Assembly: GCA_964016885.1 (NCBI GenBank)
Contig: OZ024743.1
Location: 84,940,001 to 85,004,000, forward strand
Reading direction: 5' to 3'
Length of the DNA stretch: 64,000 nucleotides
DNA from: Eledone cirrhosa
Taxonomy: Eukaryota
The stretch's first letter is position 1. Every line of letters starts with the position of its first letter. Of the stretch, positions 9,196 through 62,368 are shown one piece after another. The notes below the pieces were generated by a model. That model was not told the DNA's origin. It worked only from the letters and a program-made list of their open reading frames with translations, and did not search any database. A program made the position numbers and the translations under genes.

Positions 9196-10180
9196 TTTAG
9201 CAGCATAGTGTACAATGATAGAAAAAAAATGAATTTCCATATAATACAGTTTAAAAAAAATAAATGTCCAAAATAAATGCCTGAAAAAAAAGGAAGAAAG
9301 AAAGAATTGTTTCTTTTCTTTTAACAAAAATTTTGCTTTTCTCTTCTTTGAAATTTCTTTGGGATCGCTCTTACTAAGGAGCTAGTAGAGTTGTTGTTGT
9401 TGTTAAAGCAAAGTCACAATGAATCTTCTGTAGAGTCGAAGTCGAGCGTTGAAGAACCTAGAGTCACCAATATGGCAACCACGTCTGACGCCATAGTGGT
9501 GAGAAGACTAATGTCTTAATTTCTCGAGTCCTTGTGGTAATGAGACAGACGGTATGGTGGTTGCGTCGGTAAAGTTACAAGCCATTCTCTGGTGTTGGTT
9601 AATAGTTAGCCATGTGTTGCTGCTGATGGCTGGTACTTGGTGGTAGCCGTTTTGAAATTTCGTCGTGGCGTATATTTTTTTTTTTTTTTTTTTTTTTTTA
9701 CCGCATACACTGCCAATTTTAATTTTATTTCAAAAGGAATATTTTGAACTGAAAATATTCATCACGTCGGGTTCACCACTTTTAGCAGCATAGTGTATAA
9801 ATGTTTTTGAGACACGAGTAACATAATAATGATGTCAACAGCAGAAATTAGAGATGAAATGTATGTTTATTTTTGTTGTAGCACAAATAATGTTTGTTAA
9901 CTTGTATGGTTGAAGTTACACATAAAATGAGGTTACAAAATGGAATGTGCCATTGTGCCGGAAAGCCGGCAGGCCAAAGTGCAAAATCTCACCGTCACAT
10001 GTTGTACATGTTGCTGGTTCGAAGTTCCGGGTGCGAGAGAGAGATTCTTCAAATCTTCGCGGGGATTTTCTCCCTCAGGGCGCATAGGGATACATCCTCT
10101 TCTACTGCCGCTGATTGGCTGAGCTGAGCCAAATCACGCACAGAGAATGTATGTGAGCCCGCGGAATGTAGGTCACTACA
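9196..10180 (-). mobile_element. Deleted non-coding LTR retrotransposon: 5' LTR 9781-10180, tRNA-Trp PBS 9761-9778, 3' LTR reduced to ~20 bp
   Basis: LTR begins TGTAGTGACC; PBS TGGTGAACCCGACGTGAT; TTTAGCAGCATAGTGTA occurs at both 9196 and 9781; 4-bp TSD CATA. Confidence 0.75.
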
Positions 10181-18850: not shown

Positions 18851-19725
18851 GAGCAAATGGGCGACTGGCACATCGAATGTGCTCAGGCGCTCACAGTCCT
18901 CTGGCAAACGGACCCGGCGATCAGTGGAGACTCCACTTCGACATTCTATAGAGGGTTGGTCCGCAGCAAGTGTGACGACACGCTCGGAGAAACTCTAGGC
19001 GTATAGGAGGACGAACTGGCCAGTCTCTTTGGTAGGACCTTCCACCCAGGACCAATGGACAACTTCCAAAAGTCCCTGGCTTGGCAGTGCTACCGAGGAG
19101 CTCTACCGTCGCGCACGCATTTGTACACTGCCTGGGCGTTACCGACCTGTGGGGCTATGTAGAATGACTATTGTCGCGGGTGGGACCAATCCGGTTGACC
19201 ACCGAGTCCATTGTCATGATCAAACCGCCACCCTCCTTCATAAACGAGGGAGAGGCGGTTTTCCTATGTGTTATGGCTATGGTGAAAGAGGTTATATGGT
19301 GGACGAGGTTAAAAGGGCTGAGGTCAGACACCTTTCTCTCCGGCGAGCAACTGATTCGTTTTTTCAAATATCATTTTGGAAGAAGAATCAGGATGGAGAG
19401 AGAGGTGTTGTACCCCAGCAAATTTTATAAAAAGTGGGTGAATGTGGCAAAGATGGCCCGAGTGGTTGGGCCTTCTCTCTATATAAGCCTGTAGGTTGAG
19501 GAAAAAGAAGAGAGGAGGGGAGTACTCACTCTTGGTGCTCTTGGAGATGAGGGTTGTACATTTTTTTGTGGTGTGTACAACCCCTGTGTAACACCTCCCC
19601 TCCTATTGGGGATTTCAATTGTTATTTGTTATTGTATTAATAGTTTTATTTTCATATACTTGTATGTAAACTCCCCATTCGTATTTGTCCCCTTCTTTTG
19701 TGCCCTTGTGGCTAATAAAGAAATA
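18851..19725 (+). mobile_element. 5'-truncated Tx1/L1-clade LINE 3' end
   Basis: Homologous to 24035-24757 (AVFLC.MAMVKEVIWWTRL); ends AATAAAGAAAT; embedded in (TATC)n. Confidence 0.85.
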
Positions 19726-19744
19726 TATCTATCTATCTCCCTAT

Positions 19745-22700
19745 CTGCCTGACGCGTGGAACATCGCTAGTAAGCTTTTTTGTAAATTTCTATACAAAAA
19801 ACTGAACAAATTGTTTGAAAAAACATATCATTTTGTAGATTAACCCCCAAGCTGAATTGTCAGCTGGGTGGTAATCCTATTTTTCGCCGCTTTAGGGGTG
19901 AAAATTTCATTTAAAAATTGTTTTAAAAAATCAAATTTTGCCAACTATAAAACATGAATAGCTCGGAAAGAACGCTAGAGAACATCGACAGAGAGAAGAG
20001 AGGTAGAGAGGCAGATATTAACGTTATATTTGCTTCTACTACTATGGACGTAGCCATGAATATGACTGTCACCACTTGAAGATTTTAAAATTTCTACCGT
20101 CGAAGCGGAGAAAAAGAACACACAGGAAAACACAGGAATTAAACCTATTAATATACACACACATGAAAAAGACAACAACAACTCCATAGATACATCTACA
20201 CATAAAGTTTCACCTCGTCAAGAAATTGCGATTTCCAACACCGATGCTAACAACGATAACAACAACAACAACAGCAACACCACAAAAAAATATGTCTTTC
20301 GCTGAAACTGAACAAAAAACAAGATTTTATAAAGCTTGACATCTCCAATGCAAGAGATATGCTCCAGCAAGGGAGAAAATTTGTAACTTTCAAAGACAAG
20401 GGTGAGTTTAGAATCAACTCACCCCTCGAAATAAAAGAAGAGACAGTTCGAAGTACAGTGACCTTCAGGACTGTCTCAAACACAACGAGAAAACCAACAT
20501 TTGTGAGTCAAGCAGACATAGAAGCCACCTTGAAGGAGATTCTAGCAAATATTGTTTTCTTCAACGAGGAAAACAGTACGGAAGTATTTCTGTACTGTTT
20601 AAAAGCGAAGCACTCGCCCCAAAACATTCTGTGACACCAATGGTGTCAAAAGCATTCACCTTTTTCCCTACGTACATGGGAAAAAGGACACAAAAAATAA
20701 AAATAAAAAATATACCACCAAACATTAACATCTGGTGGATCTTGGCTGGCTTCGTAGAGCCAGAGACTGATGCTATTCTTTCAATACGAAAGTCTATTAG
20801 ACAAAGGTGGGCGGGTACTGATTTGGAGATTCTGATGCAAATGAAACCGGAGAGAGTCTCCAAAATACCCGAAAAAGTCGTCATCGACGACAACAACAAA
20901 ATAGACATTTCGGTGGAGGGGCGTAAACTTCATTGCTTTCGCTGTGGTAGCACAACACACCTAAAGGCCTCCTGCCCTTTACAAACACGATCAACCAAAA
21001 TAATACAAAAGAAAGCACTGTTACCAACACCAACACCAAAACAACCACCACCACAACAACAACAACTCACAAAACAAGCAAACGCACCAAAACAAACAGC
21101 CACTCAACCAACAACAACAGAAAAAACACAGACAACACCCCTGAAGAACACAGCCCCACTCCATCCCACTCCATCAAACACTACCACAAACACACACACC
21201 GAAACACCACCACCACACAACATACCCCTACCCCACACTCCTGACGATGATTATTCAACAACAGATGCGGCTGCTTCCCCTTCTTTAAGTGAAGAAGAAG
21301 GAGAGCCTCGGAAATCTAAAAAACAAAAAAAGAGACACCACAAAACCCCCAAAACTCCAATCACCAACACCAACACACAACCACAGACACAAACAACAAC
21401 ACAAACAACACCACAGTCAAACATCCTCCTACCAGCAAAACCAACACCAACACAACCCCAAACACAAGCACCCACCATAAAAAGAAAACTGGACGAACAA
21501 CAAACTAAAACAACACAACAAAAACACAAACAACAAGAGTTTGATGGAGGTCATCTCCCAAAACCCCAAGGTGGAGACAGAGGGCAAAACTTTTGTCAAA
21601 GCAGAATCATCTCCACACCTTAAACTTATAAGGGTTTCTATGGAGACCTATAGTGACCTGAAAAATAAATTTTCGCAAGACATGGGCAACCCCTGCCAGA
21701 AACCCATCAACCGCGTCCTGTTAAAATGTTTCCCCACTCCACCCAACACCCCTCCAGTACCCAAATGGAGATTGAACAACCCAATCTCCAGTAAACAAAA
21801 AGGTAAGTGCAACTTTTCGTCCTTTTTCTCCAACTCTTCACCAACATGGTTAGTTTACGAGTTGGAAGCGTGAATGTGCGTGGCCTAGGGATACCCTGGA
21901 AACAGGGCCAACTTTTAAACGACCTTAGGTCACACGGTATGGATGTAATAGCCATCACCGAGTCCAGGATCCACAACAGGCAGCAACTAACCCCCATCTT
22001 CGAAGACTTTGAGATCTACGCATCTCTTTGTCAGCCAGGAGGTGGAGGGGGACTGGCTGTCATATTTCGGAAGAACCTGAACGTCGAAGTACAGCAAGTA
22101 CACTTGGACCCGGAGGGTAGACTGGTTGTCCTAGACGTGAACAGTATTGGAGGTGGAGCCTTCAGACTGGTGGCTGTTTATGCCCCGACCGGGTAATCGC
22201 AATCACGGCCAGACTTCTTTAAGCGTCTAGAGTCTTTTCTGGGAACATCTCGCTCCTTACTTTTAGTGGGGGACTGGAATGGTATCCTAGATGCACGATG
22301 GGACTATGTGGGAGCATGTCCGAGTAGAAGGAGGTGCAACAGCCTCAAAACTTTAATCGGCCAATTCCAACTGGCCGATAGGTATCGACTGGATTTCCCG
22401 ACTGCACCACAGTGGACGTGGGCAAACCGCAGCGGGACATCTAGATCGTATTTAGATAGGTTCTTCATTAGAGAAAAGGAAAGGAGATGTTAAGCTGTCC
22501 ACAAATGCGCATGGTTGCCTACTCAGATCCCAAATTAGTCATCTGCTTAGTCAACCGTGATAGAACACATAGACAGGGACCTGGATACTGGAAGCTGAAC
22601 GCGTCGTTGCCGGCACGTAATGCTTTCAGTGAACGGATAAGTAGACTAGACAAGCAGCAGTTAACGGGAGCCATCGTCAACAATAGATGGTGGTACTCTC

Positions 22701-24757
22701 TCAAGAAAGCAATTAGAGTAGAATCGATAGGGTTTAGCAGAGAGTTAGCCTTAGAGAAAAACAAAATAGAAAGAGAACTAGTAGCCAAGGTAGAGGAGGC
22801 ACTTAGAAATGGTAACGCGGCTAGAGTGTTAACGTCGCGAACGGCACTAGACAAGTTCTTTGACGTGAAACATGAAGGCTGATTGGTCAGAAGCAAAACA
22901 CATGCTTTAGGAAACGAAGGAGCGAAAGCTGTCAGCTGGGCCTGAGTGGCGGAGGCAAAAAGTGGCAACAAGTCCACGATTCGGTCTTTGAAAGACCAAA
23001 ACGGACGTGTGCTACTTGACCCCGAGCGAATGCGTGCGGCCTATCAGCAGCACTTTGTACAACTGTTTGAGCAGAACGACGGTGAGCCAAATGGGGCAAT
23101 GGACTTTAGTTCATACCTAGGCAGCCTGACGCATCTCTCGAACACGGACGCCGAGGACGCCGAGTTCTGCGAAAGACCGATCACGGACACTGAGATATGG
23201 GACGGTCTGGGCCGCTGCGGGAAACGGTCTAGATGGTCTACCCTATGAGTTTTACATAGGCATGCCGGACTTGTTCTCTGGCATCCTCGAAGCCGTCTAC
23301 TGCAATTGGCAGCAGAATGGGAGAATTCCCAGTTCTGCAGGCAAGGGCGTAGTAATTCTGATCAGGAAAGACGAGAACAAGGGGGACGAAATTAACAACT
23401 TCAGGCCCATAACTCTGCTCAACACAGAGTTAAAGATTTTGGCCAAGGTGCTAGCGACGAAGTTGGCGCTTGTCGTCGAGAACCTGGTAGGGAAAGCGCA
23501 AACGTGTGCAATCTCGACCAGGTCCATACATGACAACCTCCACCTCATGCGATACATCATAGAGAGGGTGGGTAGTAAACTCGGCTTCGGTGGGTCTCTG
23601 ATCAATTTGGATCAGTCTAAGGCATTCGATAGGGTCGACCATCGATACTTGAAAGCGGTTCTCAAGGCGGCCGGTTTCGGTCCCGTTTTCAGAGGCTGGA
23701 TTGAGGCGATGCACACCAGCATCTGCTCGAGGGTCAAGGTGAACGGCTACCTATCGGAGCCGTTCGCAATCACGCGTTCCATTTGACAGGGATGCCCTCT
23801 CTCCTCCATTCTGTATGTATTGACTCCAGAGCCACTACTGCGGAAATTGGAGCTGTTGCAGGGCATCCCTCTAGAACCGGGACTGCGCAAAGCGCCGTCA
23901 GCTTATGCCGACGACGTGACAGTAATAGTATCGAGCACCTCGGAAATCAGGGTGATTGGCAACTTACTGAAAGAATACAAAACGCTGACGGGAGCAAAAC
24001 TAAACCTGGACAAGTCTGTCGGTTTGCAACTCCTGGCCTGGCAGTGCTACCGAGGAGCTCTACCAGTTTGTGACAAGATCTTCAGGCACGGGCGCCCCGG
24101 CAGGGATCCTTCCAAAAGGACGTGTCCAAGATGCGCGCAGGACATTGAAACCGTCCTGCACGCAATTGTACACTGCCCGGGCATAACCAACTTGTGGAAC
24201 TATGTAGAACAACTGCTGTCGCGTATGGGACAAATCCAGTTGACTGCCGAGTCCATAGTAAGGATCAAACTGCCAGCCTCTTTCAAAAACGAAAGGGAGG
24301 CGGTTTTCCTCTGTACAGTGGCTATGGTGAAAGAAGTTATATGGTGGACGAGATTGAGAGGACTGAGGACAGATGCCTTTCTCCCTGGACAACAATTGAT
24401 TCCCTTCTTTAAGTATCATTTTAGAAGGAGAATCAGAGTGAAGAGAGAGGCACTGCACCCTAGTAAATTTACTGAAAGGTGGGTTAATGTGGCAAAAATG
24501 GCCCGAGTGATTGGGCCTTCTCTGTTTATAAACCTGTAGGTTAAAGAAGAAAGGAGCACTTGCACAACATGCTCCTGAAGTTGAGGGTTCTATCGACGGG
24601 GTATTAAACAACCCATTTGTGGCGCTTCCCCCGTATTGGGGATTTCGATTGTTATAATTGTTTGTTTTATATCTTTTACACGGCTGTATGTAAAATCCCC
24701 AGCATGTCTTTGTATTGTCCCCTTTTCTTGTGCGCCCTTGTGGTAAATAAAGAAATC
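19745..24757 (+). mobile_element. Decayed full-span Tx1/L1-clade LINE: ORF1 with CCHC knuckle, ORF2 with APE and RT, internal deletion near 24033
   Basis: CFRCGSTTHLKASC; SVNVRGL, AVYAP, GDWN, NFRPITLLNTELKIL, LDQSKAFDRVDH, QGCPLS, AYADD; several stops; followed by (CT)n. Confidence 0.92.
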
Positions 24758-24782
24758 TTTCTCTCTCACTCTCTCTCCCTCC

Positions 24783-25460: not shown

Positions 25461-28400
25461 GTCCCAAATGCAAAGTATGGGTACATAAAAGATGTAGTGG
25501 GATCACAGGTAAACTATCTAAGAACATAGACTTATAGCAAAATACTGGGTTGTATGGATATAACAAGGAGATTTGGTTTGTGTGTATAATATTTAATAAA
25601 CAATATGTGGATATATAGAACAGTATAGTTGACATGTCAAAGAAATAGATGAGAGAATGAAACAAAGTTATTAGTTACCGCTTGGTTGCCAGGGTTACAC
25701 ACGTCCAAGGCCAGGAGGCGCCTGACCGAAAAGGCGAATGAGAGATAGGAAGCTTAACGTTATTAGTTTTATAGGGTTCTGACCGGAAGTTACAGAAAGG
25801 GTTCTACTTCCTGTCTAAAGAGCGTTAATCTATTGGGGTTGTGAGTGTCACAACAAGGGAGGCAACTCCTGCTACATTACTTCCCGCCAGATTTTTAAAA
25901 TATAAAAATCAAATGAAATATGTATGTAGCAAGTTGGCGAGAATGTTGTAACAGGCATGAAAATTACGAAAAAAAAAAAATAATGTTTGCAAAAATCAAT
26001 GATAGATATCAAGGTAGCCAACCGTTCTTGGCCAGAGAACGACTGGACTTCTATCTATCCATCACCCAAAGATACAATGTAATAAAGTAAAAGAGCTCAA
26101 AGTTCAAATGTACAAAATATAGTTCACAGGTGTGCAATCACATGACAGCAGGAAAGAAAGTGTGTTCCAGAGAATGAATGCAGGTGGTTTCTGTTCTGTG
26201 GTATATCGTGAAACTTCCAACCTCCGAATGGATTTTCTCACAGGAAGAGTGCTCAAAAATAAATTCTCTGGCTTGTTCTGCTGGTTTTGGTTGTTGATGA
26301 AGCTGTGTTGCTGTTGATGTTGTTGTCTCGCGGAGTGAGCATATTCGATGTTTAATTTCACAGTAAAGAAAATTTTTTCAGAAAAAATGAGTTTCGCAAA
26401 GTGCTAGAAATAACAGCTGAAGTTGATGGTCGATGTTGAGAATGCGTTGACCTGGAAGGGTCAAGAGGCCAGCGACCAAAGAAATAAGCATTCTGAATAA
26501 ATGCGCAGTTTTCAACGGCAAATTTACGTGGTAAATTTTTAACCGGCAAATAGGAGAATATAGCTTAAGGCTGAAGAATCCTTGGCGAGAAACGTTATCC
26601 CTGGCGTGCGGCTATCTCTGTGAGTCGAGATATCTCCGTGAATCGAGAATCCTACACGTGCCAAAACAAGGTTAAGTTGAAAAAATAATATTTCTAACAC
26701 GCGAGAAAATGGCGCGAAAATGAAAATGCGACAGGTCGTTGGCAGCCATTTTGAAAAAATGTGTGTGTGAAAGTGACAATGATGAAAAAGAAAGAAAGGC
26801 TTCACTTAGCATAACAAATATGGCGAGTTCAATTTGTTTTTTTTTATTTTTGGTGTGAACTTTGAAAAAAACTTGAACGATGAAGAAAACGATGGAAAAA
26901 AAGGCAATGGTTGAGGTTCATCGAAAATAAATGTTCCTGTTGAAATGTTTTAAAAAAAAAAAAAAATCAAATTTATTTTTTTTTGTTTGTTTTTAAAGTG
27001 TTCGTTGTAAGAAACGAGAAACATATATATATATATCGTGAAATGCGACAGTTAGTTGATGCGTGAGAGAAAAAGTCTGTCTGAACGCGAATTTCACATG
27101 TGCGTGGTGTGTTCGTTTCTTGGTTGCGTATTTTCGTAGTTTGTCAATAAAATTTTGCTGTGTATTCGTAATGTTACTCACACAACACCAGATTCTGCTA
27201 TTTTTTTCTTTTTTCGGGGTCACCAATTATAACAATGAACGGCTGCGTGTTCGTATCACGTCGCGGTCACCAATTATAGCGAAATACTAGTGTGTATGAA
27301 TGTAACAAGGAGACGTGGTTTGGGTGTATAATATTTAATAAACAATATGTGGATATATAGAACAGTATAGTTGACATGTCAAAGAAATAGATGAGAGAAT
27401 GAAACAAAGTTATTAGTTATCGCTTAGTTGCCAGGGTTACACACGCCCGAGTAAAGACTCCTGGCCAAGGCCAGGAGGCGCCTGACCGAAAAGGTGAATG
27501 AGAGATAGGAAGCTTAACGTTGTTAGTTTTATAGGGTTCTGACCGGAAGTTACAGAAAGGGTTCTATTTCCTGTCTAAAGAGCGTTAATCTATTGGGGTT
27601 GTGAGTGTCACAACAAGGGAGGCAACTCCTGCTACAGACTTTATATGTGGCCGATGCTCAGGTGCAATAGGTACCAAGTGTCCACAGTTGGCCACAAAAG
27701 GTTTCTCTCTAAAAATGAAAGGCAGATTGTATGATGCTTGTATACGAACAGCAATGCTACATGGCAGTGAGACATGGGCATTATGTGCAGAGGACCTGCA
27801 CAGACTGGAAAGGAACGAAGCATGCATGCTCCGTTGGATATGTAATAGTAATATACGTGAACAGCAAAGCATAAATGAACTCAGTGAGAAATTAGAAATA
27901 AGAGGGATCAGATGCTGTTTACTTGAGAGAAGACTACGTTGGTATGGCCACGTGATGCGCATGAAAGACGAGAGCTGTATAAAAAACTGCAGGGCGATCA
28001 AAATTGATGGTAGTTACGGAGTAGGTAGACCCAGAAAAACCTGGGACGATCTGATAAATTCCGACCTTACACACTTGTACCTCTCTAAGACAATGTCATT
28101 GGACCGAGATCTTTGGCGCTACGCAGTTATACAGAAGACCCGCCTTACCTATGTACAAAGTGAAACCTACAGTCAGTAGGCACCTCTTAACCAAATATAC
28201 ACCCCAATCCACTACCCCTACCCTATCCTCCCACTCCCACCAACACCACCCTCTCTGTAAAGTTGGTACCACAACATCCAGTCCAAATAAATGAGATAAT
28301 GAGATCGAGATCCTGTAGGTGTCACGAGAAAAAATCACACATTCCACGCTGTAATGTGGCCGTGTAGGTAACACGGTAAAAAGTTCCCAGTTCCACACTG

Positions 28401-61302: not shown

Positions 61303-62368
61303 GCATAAAAGATGTAGTGGGATCACAGGTAAGCTAACTAAGAACATAGATTTTATATGTGGCCGGTGCTCAGGTGCAATAAGTAGCAAGTGCCCTCAGG
61401 GTACTAGCTCCTTCCATTGGCCAGATGGTCCTATAGAAATAGTGGACACCTTCCGTTACCTGGGTGACAAAATCAGCAGTGGTGGAGGGTGCTCTGAAAG
61501 TACAGTAGCCAGAGTCAGAACGGGATGGAAAAAGTTCAGAGAGCTTATACCACTATTGGCCGCTAAAGGTTTCTCTCTAAAAATGAAAGGCAGACTGATG
61601 CCTGCATACGAACAGCTATGTTACATGGCAGTGAGACTTGGGCATTGTGGGCAGAGGATATGCGCAGACTGGAGAGGAACGAAGCTTGCATGCTCCGCTG
61701 GATGTGTAATAGTAATATACGTGAACGGCAAAGCATAAATGAACTAAGTGAGAAATTAGGAATAAGTGGGATCAGATGCTGTTTACTCGAGAGAAGACTA
61801 CGTTGGTAGAGTCACGTGGTGCGCATGAAAGACGGCAGCTGTTTAAAAAAGTGCAGGGCGATCAAAATTGATGGAAGCTACGGAGTAGGCAGACCCAGAA
61901 AAACCTGGGACGATTTGATAAATTCTGACCTTACACACTTACACCTCTCCAAGACAATGTCACTGGACCGAGATTTTTGGCGCTACGCAGTAATACAGAA
62001 GACCCGCCTTGCCTATGTACAAAGCGAAACCTACAGTCAGTGGCACCTCTAACAAAATATACACCCCCATCCCACTACACCTACTCCCACCCCCATCAAT
62101 ACCACTCTTTCTCTGTAAAGTTATGTTAGTACCACAACATCCAGTCCAAAATAAATGAGGTCGTGTAGGTGTCACGACAAAAAAAAACACACAGTCCACG
62201 CTGTAATGTGGTCGTGTAGGTAACACGGTAAAAACCTCCCAGTCCACACTGTAAACTTGGTTGGTGTTAGGAAGGGCATCCAGCCGTAGAAAACCTGCCA
62301 GACAGTCATATCTTCCATGCTAGCGTGGAAGATAGACGTTAAATGATGATGGTGATGATGATGATGAT
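61303..62368 (+). mobile_element. 5'-truncated RTE family A
   Basis: Frameshifted ORFs 61442-62052 and (GAT)n tail. Confidence 0.9.

Follow-up and report, generated by a model that had tools for sequence, protein, structure and literature searches.

tRNA remnants have been reported at retroviral circle junctions and at aberrant provirus ends. Whether 1-methyladenosine at position 58 of the primer tRNA (m1A58) acts as the plus-strand stop in vivo has been debated for decades (PMC8599865). In human immunodeficiency virus 1 (HIV-1), minor plus-strand strong-stop products are described that pass m1A58 and stop at psi55, m5Um54 and ms2t6A37, and long strong-stop products are described as unable to transfer and integrate (PMC8599865; PMC13191261 section 10). 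For Ty1 and Ty3, plus-strand transfer without inheritance of the primer tRNA sequence is covered in a review on the work of Lauermann and Boeke (PMC5371799). The CsRn1 clade of the Ty3/Gypsy elements has a tRNA-Trp primer-binding site (PBS), a CHCC motif in Gag, a GPY motif in the integrase and a 4-bp target-site duplication (TSD) (PMC3630058). Here, we describe a 2.1-kb long terminal repeat (LTR) element on the minus strand of a stretch of 64,000 nucleotides (nt) from Eledone cirrhosa (GCA_964016885.1, contig OZ024743.1, positions 84,940,001 to 85,004,000), which is called the window in the following. The element carries, next to its 5' LTR, a 32-nt copy of mature tRNA-Trp, followed by a copy of the LTR end and a second, short PBS. 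This block is an inherited junction, likely from one founder read-through past m1A58, and the mechanism is well supported at the genome level.

The first site, PBS1 (27241-27272, minus strand), is the complement of positions 76-45 of mature tRNA-Trp(CCA), with the CCA included, and begins at the CCA complement 2 nt past the LTR. These 2 nt (27273-27274, minus strand) form a gap of equal length in the family copies. Read on the plus strand, the block is identical at 30 of its 32 positions to the host tRNA-Trp(CCA) gene of locus L070 with CCA added, in agreement with the preliminary description, which had also placed one mismatch exactly at position 58. There, T replaces A (27254, plus strand), a scar found family-wide at the m1A58 site. 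The other mismatch is at position 68, where C replaces G (27264, plus strand), an ordinary variant of a small subgroup also found in L004, L005 and L023. The tRNA match stops at G45, and the next 15 bases are not tRNA. A58 is present in each of the 17 host tRNA-Trp genes found (ARAGORN, 20 fetched stretches), position 57 being either G or A, and the match to the host tRNA covers all 32 nt. None of them encodes the CCA, although its complement stands at the LTR end, as is expected of a read-through copy of mature tRNA. Neither a tRNA gene nor an RNA family was detected at the block site when ARAGORN and Rfam were applied to the window, and reversed-pattern controls gave no matches in any of the genome searches. 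In L061:506-581, ARAGORN assigned a tRNA-Leu(CAA) within a Trp cluster; its sequence is like that of a Trp gene, and it is likely a decayed Trp copy with a changed anticodon.

Forty of the 2006 candidates that a DNA search for the family returned were scored. For a 25-mer of the internal region, at a distance from the PBS, there were 518 exact matches in the genome; the first 80, all on contig C1, were fetched and are the sampled copies referred to below. The block was present in 77 of the 80, while two (L150 and L199) had only the short PBS and one was truncated. Scoring the family copies for PBS length, base 58 and the tandem PBS, as had been suggested, gave T58 in 74 of the 77 block-bearing copies, C58 in three and A58 in none. 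The exact block-plus-spacer pattern occurred 570 times in the genome, with T58 in 562 cases, C58 in eight, and neither A58 nor G58. A block private to the window copy is thus rejected. As the junction is present in more than 500 copies, the founder event occurred once and the window copy inherited it; the 47-nt block is one inherited founder junction. The earlier proposal of read-through followed by an aberrant strand transfer therefore holds as a mechanism, for which the hot spot at position 58 and the LTR-end spacer described below speak, but not as an event of the window copy itself.

Several loci show further arrangements of the same unit. L043, L046, L175 and L216 have two 32-nt blocks and three PBS sites, the unit growing by 46-47 nt. 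At L032/L098 (G000, C1 near 71,733,600) an LTR is followed by a 32-nt block with C58 and T47 and then directly by a polypurine tract and another LTR; this tiny unit stands in tandem with a full copy and is possibly a fresh read-through from another isodecoder. On G000, C14:21,370,171-21,464,587, 13 T58 matches lie on one strand at a spacing of about 4-6 kb, in a tandem array or a segmental amplification.

The LTR-end-like stretch and short PBS noticed further in are a 15-nt spacer (27226-27240, minus strand) and a 12-nt tRNA-Trp site, PBS2 (27214-27225, minus strand). The spacer shares 10 of 15 positions with the window element's own LTR end and is the very sequence with which the LTR of copy L007 ends. 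It occurs in six variants among the 77 copies, compared to 49 variants of the live U5 end (last 17 nt). Judged by these comparisons, the spacer preserves an LTR end in frozen form, which is what a strand transfer out of register would predict. In the sister element L272, whose internal region is 82 % identical, a 12-nt PBS alone stands in front of a similar A-run, so PBS2 is likely the ancestral site; in L150 and L199 the short PBS is likewise followed by the A-run. The 3' LTR of L272 is trailed by an 18-nt tRNA copy despite the element's 12-nt PBS. In most family copies PBS2 has decayed.

In the founder, plus-strand reverse transcription would have run past m1A58 of the primer tRNA-Trp, likely misreading it as T, and the over-long plus strand would have stopped at G45. 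If the minus strand runs through the PBS into U5, as in Ty1/Ty3, such a strand could land on U5 by microhomology; in this case it would have come down again 15 nt within the LTR end, and both this end and the old 12-nt PBS would have been duplicated. A landing of this kind would give exactly the order of long PBS, U5 end and old PBS. In later cycles the block would mostly be passed on from the element RNA.

Both LTRs were present in 70 of the 80 sampled copies, and by eye all but four of these terminate with the U5 end, after which host DNA begins. This indicates priming at PBS1, which we infer to be the working primer site now. Among the exceptional ends, L163 and L183 have a repeated U5 end, in L180 the 3' LTR is followed by 9 nt of PBS and then a U5-end copy, and in L216 block and spacer follow the 3' LTR, as expected for priming at a downstream site. 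In the 70 LTR pairs the 5' and 3' LTRs diverged by 10 % over the last 10 nt (a value that may be too high because of the forced end alignment), by 2.6-3.6 % at 10-50 nt and by 0.6-1.3 % beyond; no difference over the last 60 nt was seen in 21 of the pairs. The last 50 nt of U5 (27275-27325 versus 25533-25583 in the window; L147-L226) are hypervariable between copies and often between the two LTRs of one element. This would inflate ages derived from LTR pairs and is a warning for dating.

The proximal part of the block shows how it is inherited. Letters other than those of the tRNA stand at both positions 72 and 67 in 58 of the 77 copies, whereas the tRNA letter is found at 72 alone in six, at both positions in 12 and at 67 alone in one. 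On an internal-region tree of 69 of the 80 copies, excluding those without both LTRs or the block, these states need 12 changes, at least eight of them required by starred branches. A single clade contains four of the fully matching copies, which may never have lost the tRNA letters. This distribution indicates that, in a minority of cycles, letters of the tRNA are introduced starting at the CCA end but not as far as position 58, the tRNA-copied strand sometimes correcting 72 and 67; the scar at 58 would thus stay. One could suppose instead that every replication cycle rewrites the 32-nt block from the tRNA and that the reverse transcriptase (RT) always puts A opposite m1A58. The near-uniform T58 and the repeated correction of 72 and 67 would agree with this, as would bases 58 and 47 varying between copies of a 40-nt family. 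However, most copies keep two non-tRNA letters nearer to the CCA end, all 77 have G at position 57 although many host genes have A57, and each of the four bases occurs at 58 among one-off read-throughs. For the window family rewriting in each cycle is refuted by the inherited 72 and 67 variants, a refutation that does not extend to the 39-40-nt family, and as a general account it is very improbable. The polar correction and the divergence at the LTR ends fit the Ty1/Ty3 model, in which the PBS comes mostly from the element RNA, the plus strand that copies the tRNA is usually a dead end and transfer goes through R-U5. As far as the review goes, the present case differs in that tRNA letters enter a minority of copies in a polar manner and that over-long dead-end strands would have been rescued by re-landing on U5.

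Evidence for read-through past m1A58 also comes from other loci. The exact 18-nt Trp PBS occurred 410 times, and in 160 cases the tRNA register continues to at least 24 nt (61 with A58, 90 with T58 and nine with C or G). Among the first 30 unselected exact 18-mers 17 end at exactly 18 nt, two at 19 nt and 11 at 22-39 nt, so the m1A58 stop is the norm here. The window has an 18-nt tRNA-Trp PBS of this normal length at 9761-9778 (minus strand; one mismatch), with the same junction in L251, L252, L262, L269 and L275. It had been put forward as an internal control and does represent the normal stop, but it belongs to a different LTR family and is no control for the family itself. RT behaviour is similar to that described for HIV-1, where synthesis as a rule stops ahead of m1A58 but occasionally continues to the following modified base.

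A 35-mer search, demanding a match to about position 42 with at most two mismatches anywhere, gave 45 places, and 12 of their 50 mismatches were at position 58. After removal of six copies of the 39-40-nt family, two of a 33-nt family, one tRNA gene (L234) and one hairpin arm, 35 one-off LTR-end copies of tRNA-Trp, 33-50 nt long, remained. Seven of these differ at A58 (three T, three C, one G), whereas five other tRNA-A columns together gave one difference in 175 cells (Fisher p 1.5e-5). Columns 49 and 64 come next in variability, with four differing copies each, mostly C-to-T. Position 58 is the single mismatch hot spot among independent long tRNA copies. Of 14 copies that go past G37, two differ at 37, and these 14 have no other mismatch past position 41. 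The copies end, with an uncertainty of 1-2 nt, at positions 41-44 (five), 35-40 (23) and 27-29 (seven), none at 30-34 and none past 27, and all seven that run past position 34 thus end at 27-29. In fly and human tRNA-Trp m1A58, 1-methylguanosine at 37 (m1G37) and N2,N2-dimethylguanosine at 26 (m2,2G26) are listed (PMC8062790, table mmc3), and the mismatches and stops observed here fall at these positions with modifications of the Watson-Crick face. By analogy, A58, G37 and G26 are probably methylated in this host as well. Mismatch and stop signatures at 58, 37 and 26 are also the basis of mim-tRNAseq (PMC8062790) and DM-tRNA-seq (PMC5066629), as far as described there; the difference is that here the signature would be written in vivo by an endogenous RT and is read from the genome sequence.

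Individual loci illustrate the same behaviour. In L235:1400-1610 (G000, C10 near 53,056,950) the tRNA copy reaches position 27, snaps back on the anticodon stem and is then its own template, with 101-bp arms that differ by two mismatches; T58 stands in both arms, so the change is older than the fold-back. Read by eye, L089 is missing 5 nt that span G37, the jump being made between short repeats; in L263 one base is inserted at 58, although its family otherwise shows a clean 32-nt block.

Of the 45 long copies, 44 start at the CCA complement and most follow LTR-end-like sequence; the upstream DNA of 36 of the 45 is common to other loci. A copy of the own LTR end after the extension was found in seven of 44 loci, compared to six of 400 mismatched random cross-family pairs; left and right LTR ends were assigned only for L180, L216 and L272. 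These observations bear on the idea that LINE (long interspersed nuclear element) machinery inserted a tRNA fragment as a tailless retrocopy, with the repeated LTR end and PBS as its TSD. It is true that a 27-nt imperfect direct repeat lies on both sides of the 20 extra tRNA nucleotides and that LINE-like repeats are abundant in the window. The extra bases, however, continue the PBS in exact tRNA register, the window block has no TSD of its own and its position is not independent of the LTR end, and the design recurs in unrelated families and metagenome contigs. A LINE-made retrocopy is close to refuted and hardly credible.

Several points weigh against the read-through account of the founder. 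A58 was read correctly in 28 of the 35 one-off read-throughs; unmethylated tRNA may have been copied in most of them. The anticodon stem-loop lies where the ends near 38 and 27 occur, and structure could contribute to these ends. The family represents one event and has other ordinary PBS changes fixed, at 72 and 67, and T58 could be such a change. To our knowledge G45 is not a blocking modification, and for this reason the 32-nt end is not explained by modification. Where the strand would have landed in this family, the microhomology is short and imperfect, and no autonomous partner of the window family was found among the fetched loci. L080 and L240 were considered as partners and rejected, their LTR matches being neighbouring non-coding copies and not the coding elements.

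The third of these points can be phrased as an explanation of its own: the block is a read-through product, but T58 arose as a later point mutation in the founder lineage and is not a misread m1A. Besides the changes at 72 and 67 and the frequent A58 in one-off copies, the coding family L080 speaks for it, with a 32-nt block that has A58. The LTR of L080's own element, however, has no BLAST match to the window LTR, and T58 is the sole family-wide change in the 14 nt past the normal PBS (77 copies). T58 is found at three or four further propagated junctions as well (L249/L260, L053, L090/L231 and L236), and A-to-T is the main in vitro signature of m1A58 for tRNA-Trp, which about three quarters of the reads of most isodecoders show as T (PMC8062790, mmc3). 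A later mutation appears unlikely. The founder T58 is likely a misincorporation, not with certainty separable from ordinary mutation at a position unable to pair with m1A.

Long blocks are not restricted to the window family, and 32 nt as a fixed length for the clade was rejected, lengths ranging from 18 to 50 nt. Propagated long blocks measure 22 nt (L249, L260), 29 nt (L053), 32 nt (window family, L080), 33 nt (L104, L236) and 39-40 nt (L241 group). L249/L260, of another family, combine the 22 nt with T58, an LTR-end copy and a second PBS, and L053, of yet another, has T58 and a tandem PBS. The 19 matches in metagenome contigs have A58 (15), G58 (three) or C58 (one); among them L109 differs at 37, L108/L119 have 32 nt, a spacer and a second PBS, and L116, running to position 7, may be a gene. 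L108 and L119 also have a further tRNA-Trp-derived piece with G58 inside the LTR end, upstream of the PBS. A viral contig scan gave no matches. L088, L090, L097, L133, L231, L232 and L241 belong to a coding CsRn1-type family whose 39-40-nt PBS ends at G37/A38; its bases 58 and 47 vary, and it may refresh its block from the tRNA. In a second coding family (L080, L276-L304) the 32-nt PBS, with A58 and from another isodecoder, ends at G45, and many copies share an inherited variant at position 52.

Such recurrence raises the question of upkeep. The long PBS may be a selected primer over-extension sequence, which either pairs with the primer over 32 nt or enables the transfer of over-extended plus strands, with position 58 drifting as m1A cannot pair; this would be compatible with an origin by read-through. 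Several propagated families do keep long blocks, blocks end at G45 in three lineages (window family, L080 and metagenome L108/L119), and the duplex energy computed for unmodified RNA is -60.3 kcal/mol for PBS1 compared to -24.1 kcal/mol for the mostly decayed PBS2, PBS1 tolerating two proximal mismatches. Lentiviruses have such a sequence (PMC13191261 section 10), and in lentiviruses and spumaviruses, as here, element bases past the 18-nt PBS match further tRNA; the extension described there is about 4 nt (to 54/55), compared to 4 to 22 nt here, followed by an LTR-end copy and often a second PBS (PMC13191261 section 10, PMC8599865). Selection does not, however, explain mismatches at 58 and 37 in one-off junctions that stand before host DNA and never replicated again, or the hairpin L235. 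A58 was regained in none of the 570 family matches, which argues that over-extended strands rarely use the block, short-PBS-only copies exist (L150, L199, L272), and the family is too young to tell selection from recent descent. Selected upkeep is possible, and we regard it as a tentative and rather doubtful explanation.

The remaining anatomy of the window element is that of a non-autonomous LTR retrotransposon, with two LTRs, PBS, polypurine tract, TSD and no coding capacity. On the minus strand, the 5' LTR (27275-27636, 362 bp, TGTAGC...GCTATA) has a 91 % BLAST match to the second LTR, and the 3' LTR (25533-25876, 344 bp), aligned to it, shows nine substitutions in the last 50 nt and six plus an 18-bp gap in the first 310. 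The internal region (25890-27213, 1.3 kb) has no open reading frame (ORF) of 150 amino acids and has stops throughout its three-frame translation. The polypurine tract (25877-25889) is the same as that preceding the 3' LTR in family copies. The element is inserted in a repeat, with the TSD GACT at both sides (25529-25532 and 27637-27640); the flanks of the interrupted repeat join elsewhere in the window, e.g. at 61304-61399. A broken LINE-like element with a zinc-knuckle ORF and, by eye, endonuclease- and RT-like pieces lies at 20250-24760 (plus strand), and a related 3' fragment at about 18860-19730.

The window element shares the Trp PBS and the 4-bp TSD with the CsRn1 clade, and the coding elements L080 (32-nt block) and L241 (40-nt block) have RT, RNase H and integrase domains, CHCC and GPY motifs and a 4-bp TSD. 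The window element itself encodes nothing and its LTR is not linked to a coding partner; it is probably CsRn1-dependent. A long or doubled PBS, as present here in a non-coding element, is not mentioned in the parts of PMC3630058 that were available. In the fly element CsRn1_Cv1 (supplement 2 of the same paper) the bases after the short PBS align by eye to tRNA positions 58-52 with one gap, a weak, AT-rich match that is perhaps a decayed long PBS.

The HIV-1 products past m1A58 are, in the sources cited above, in vitro products or intermediates in cell culture, whereas those described here are integrated in the germline, have base changes at 58 and 37 and founded families. The components, i.e. 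the m1A58 stop, longer products and non-inheritance of the PBS, are known. We found no report of strong-stop products fixed in the germline with errors at modification sites in a partial coverage of the literature, outside which lie Repbase-type entries, so that a prior description is possible; on this incomplete coverage, the germline record is the new part.

A broader reading is that tRNA-Trp-primed Gypsy elements often pass m1A58 in the germline, that the integrated by-products form a genome-readable map of m1A58, m1G37 and m2,2G26, and that U5 re-landing rescued over-extended strands, repeatedly founding families with a long PBS as a working, selected primer site. We consider the case for and against this reading to be evenly balanced. 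The stop and dozens of integrated escapes from it, with errors and stops at three probably modified positions, occur together in a single genome, which offers a sequence-only readout of tRNA modification and of the behaviour of retrotransposon RT at modified bases. It is also natural evidence in favour of a transfer pathway like that of Ty1/Ty3 in a Gypsy clade of animals. If the broader reading is true, the screen could be used on any primer tRNA and would yield maps of modifications, together with error signatures of the RT, for species or extinct lineages without RNA data.
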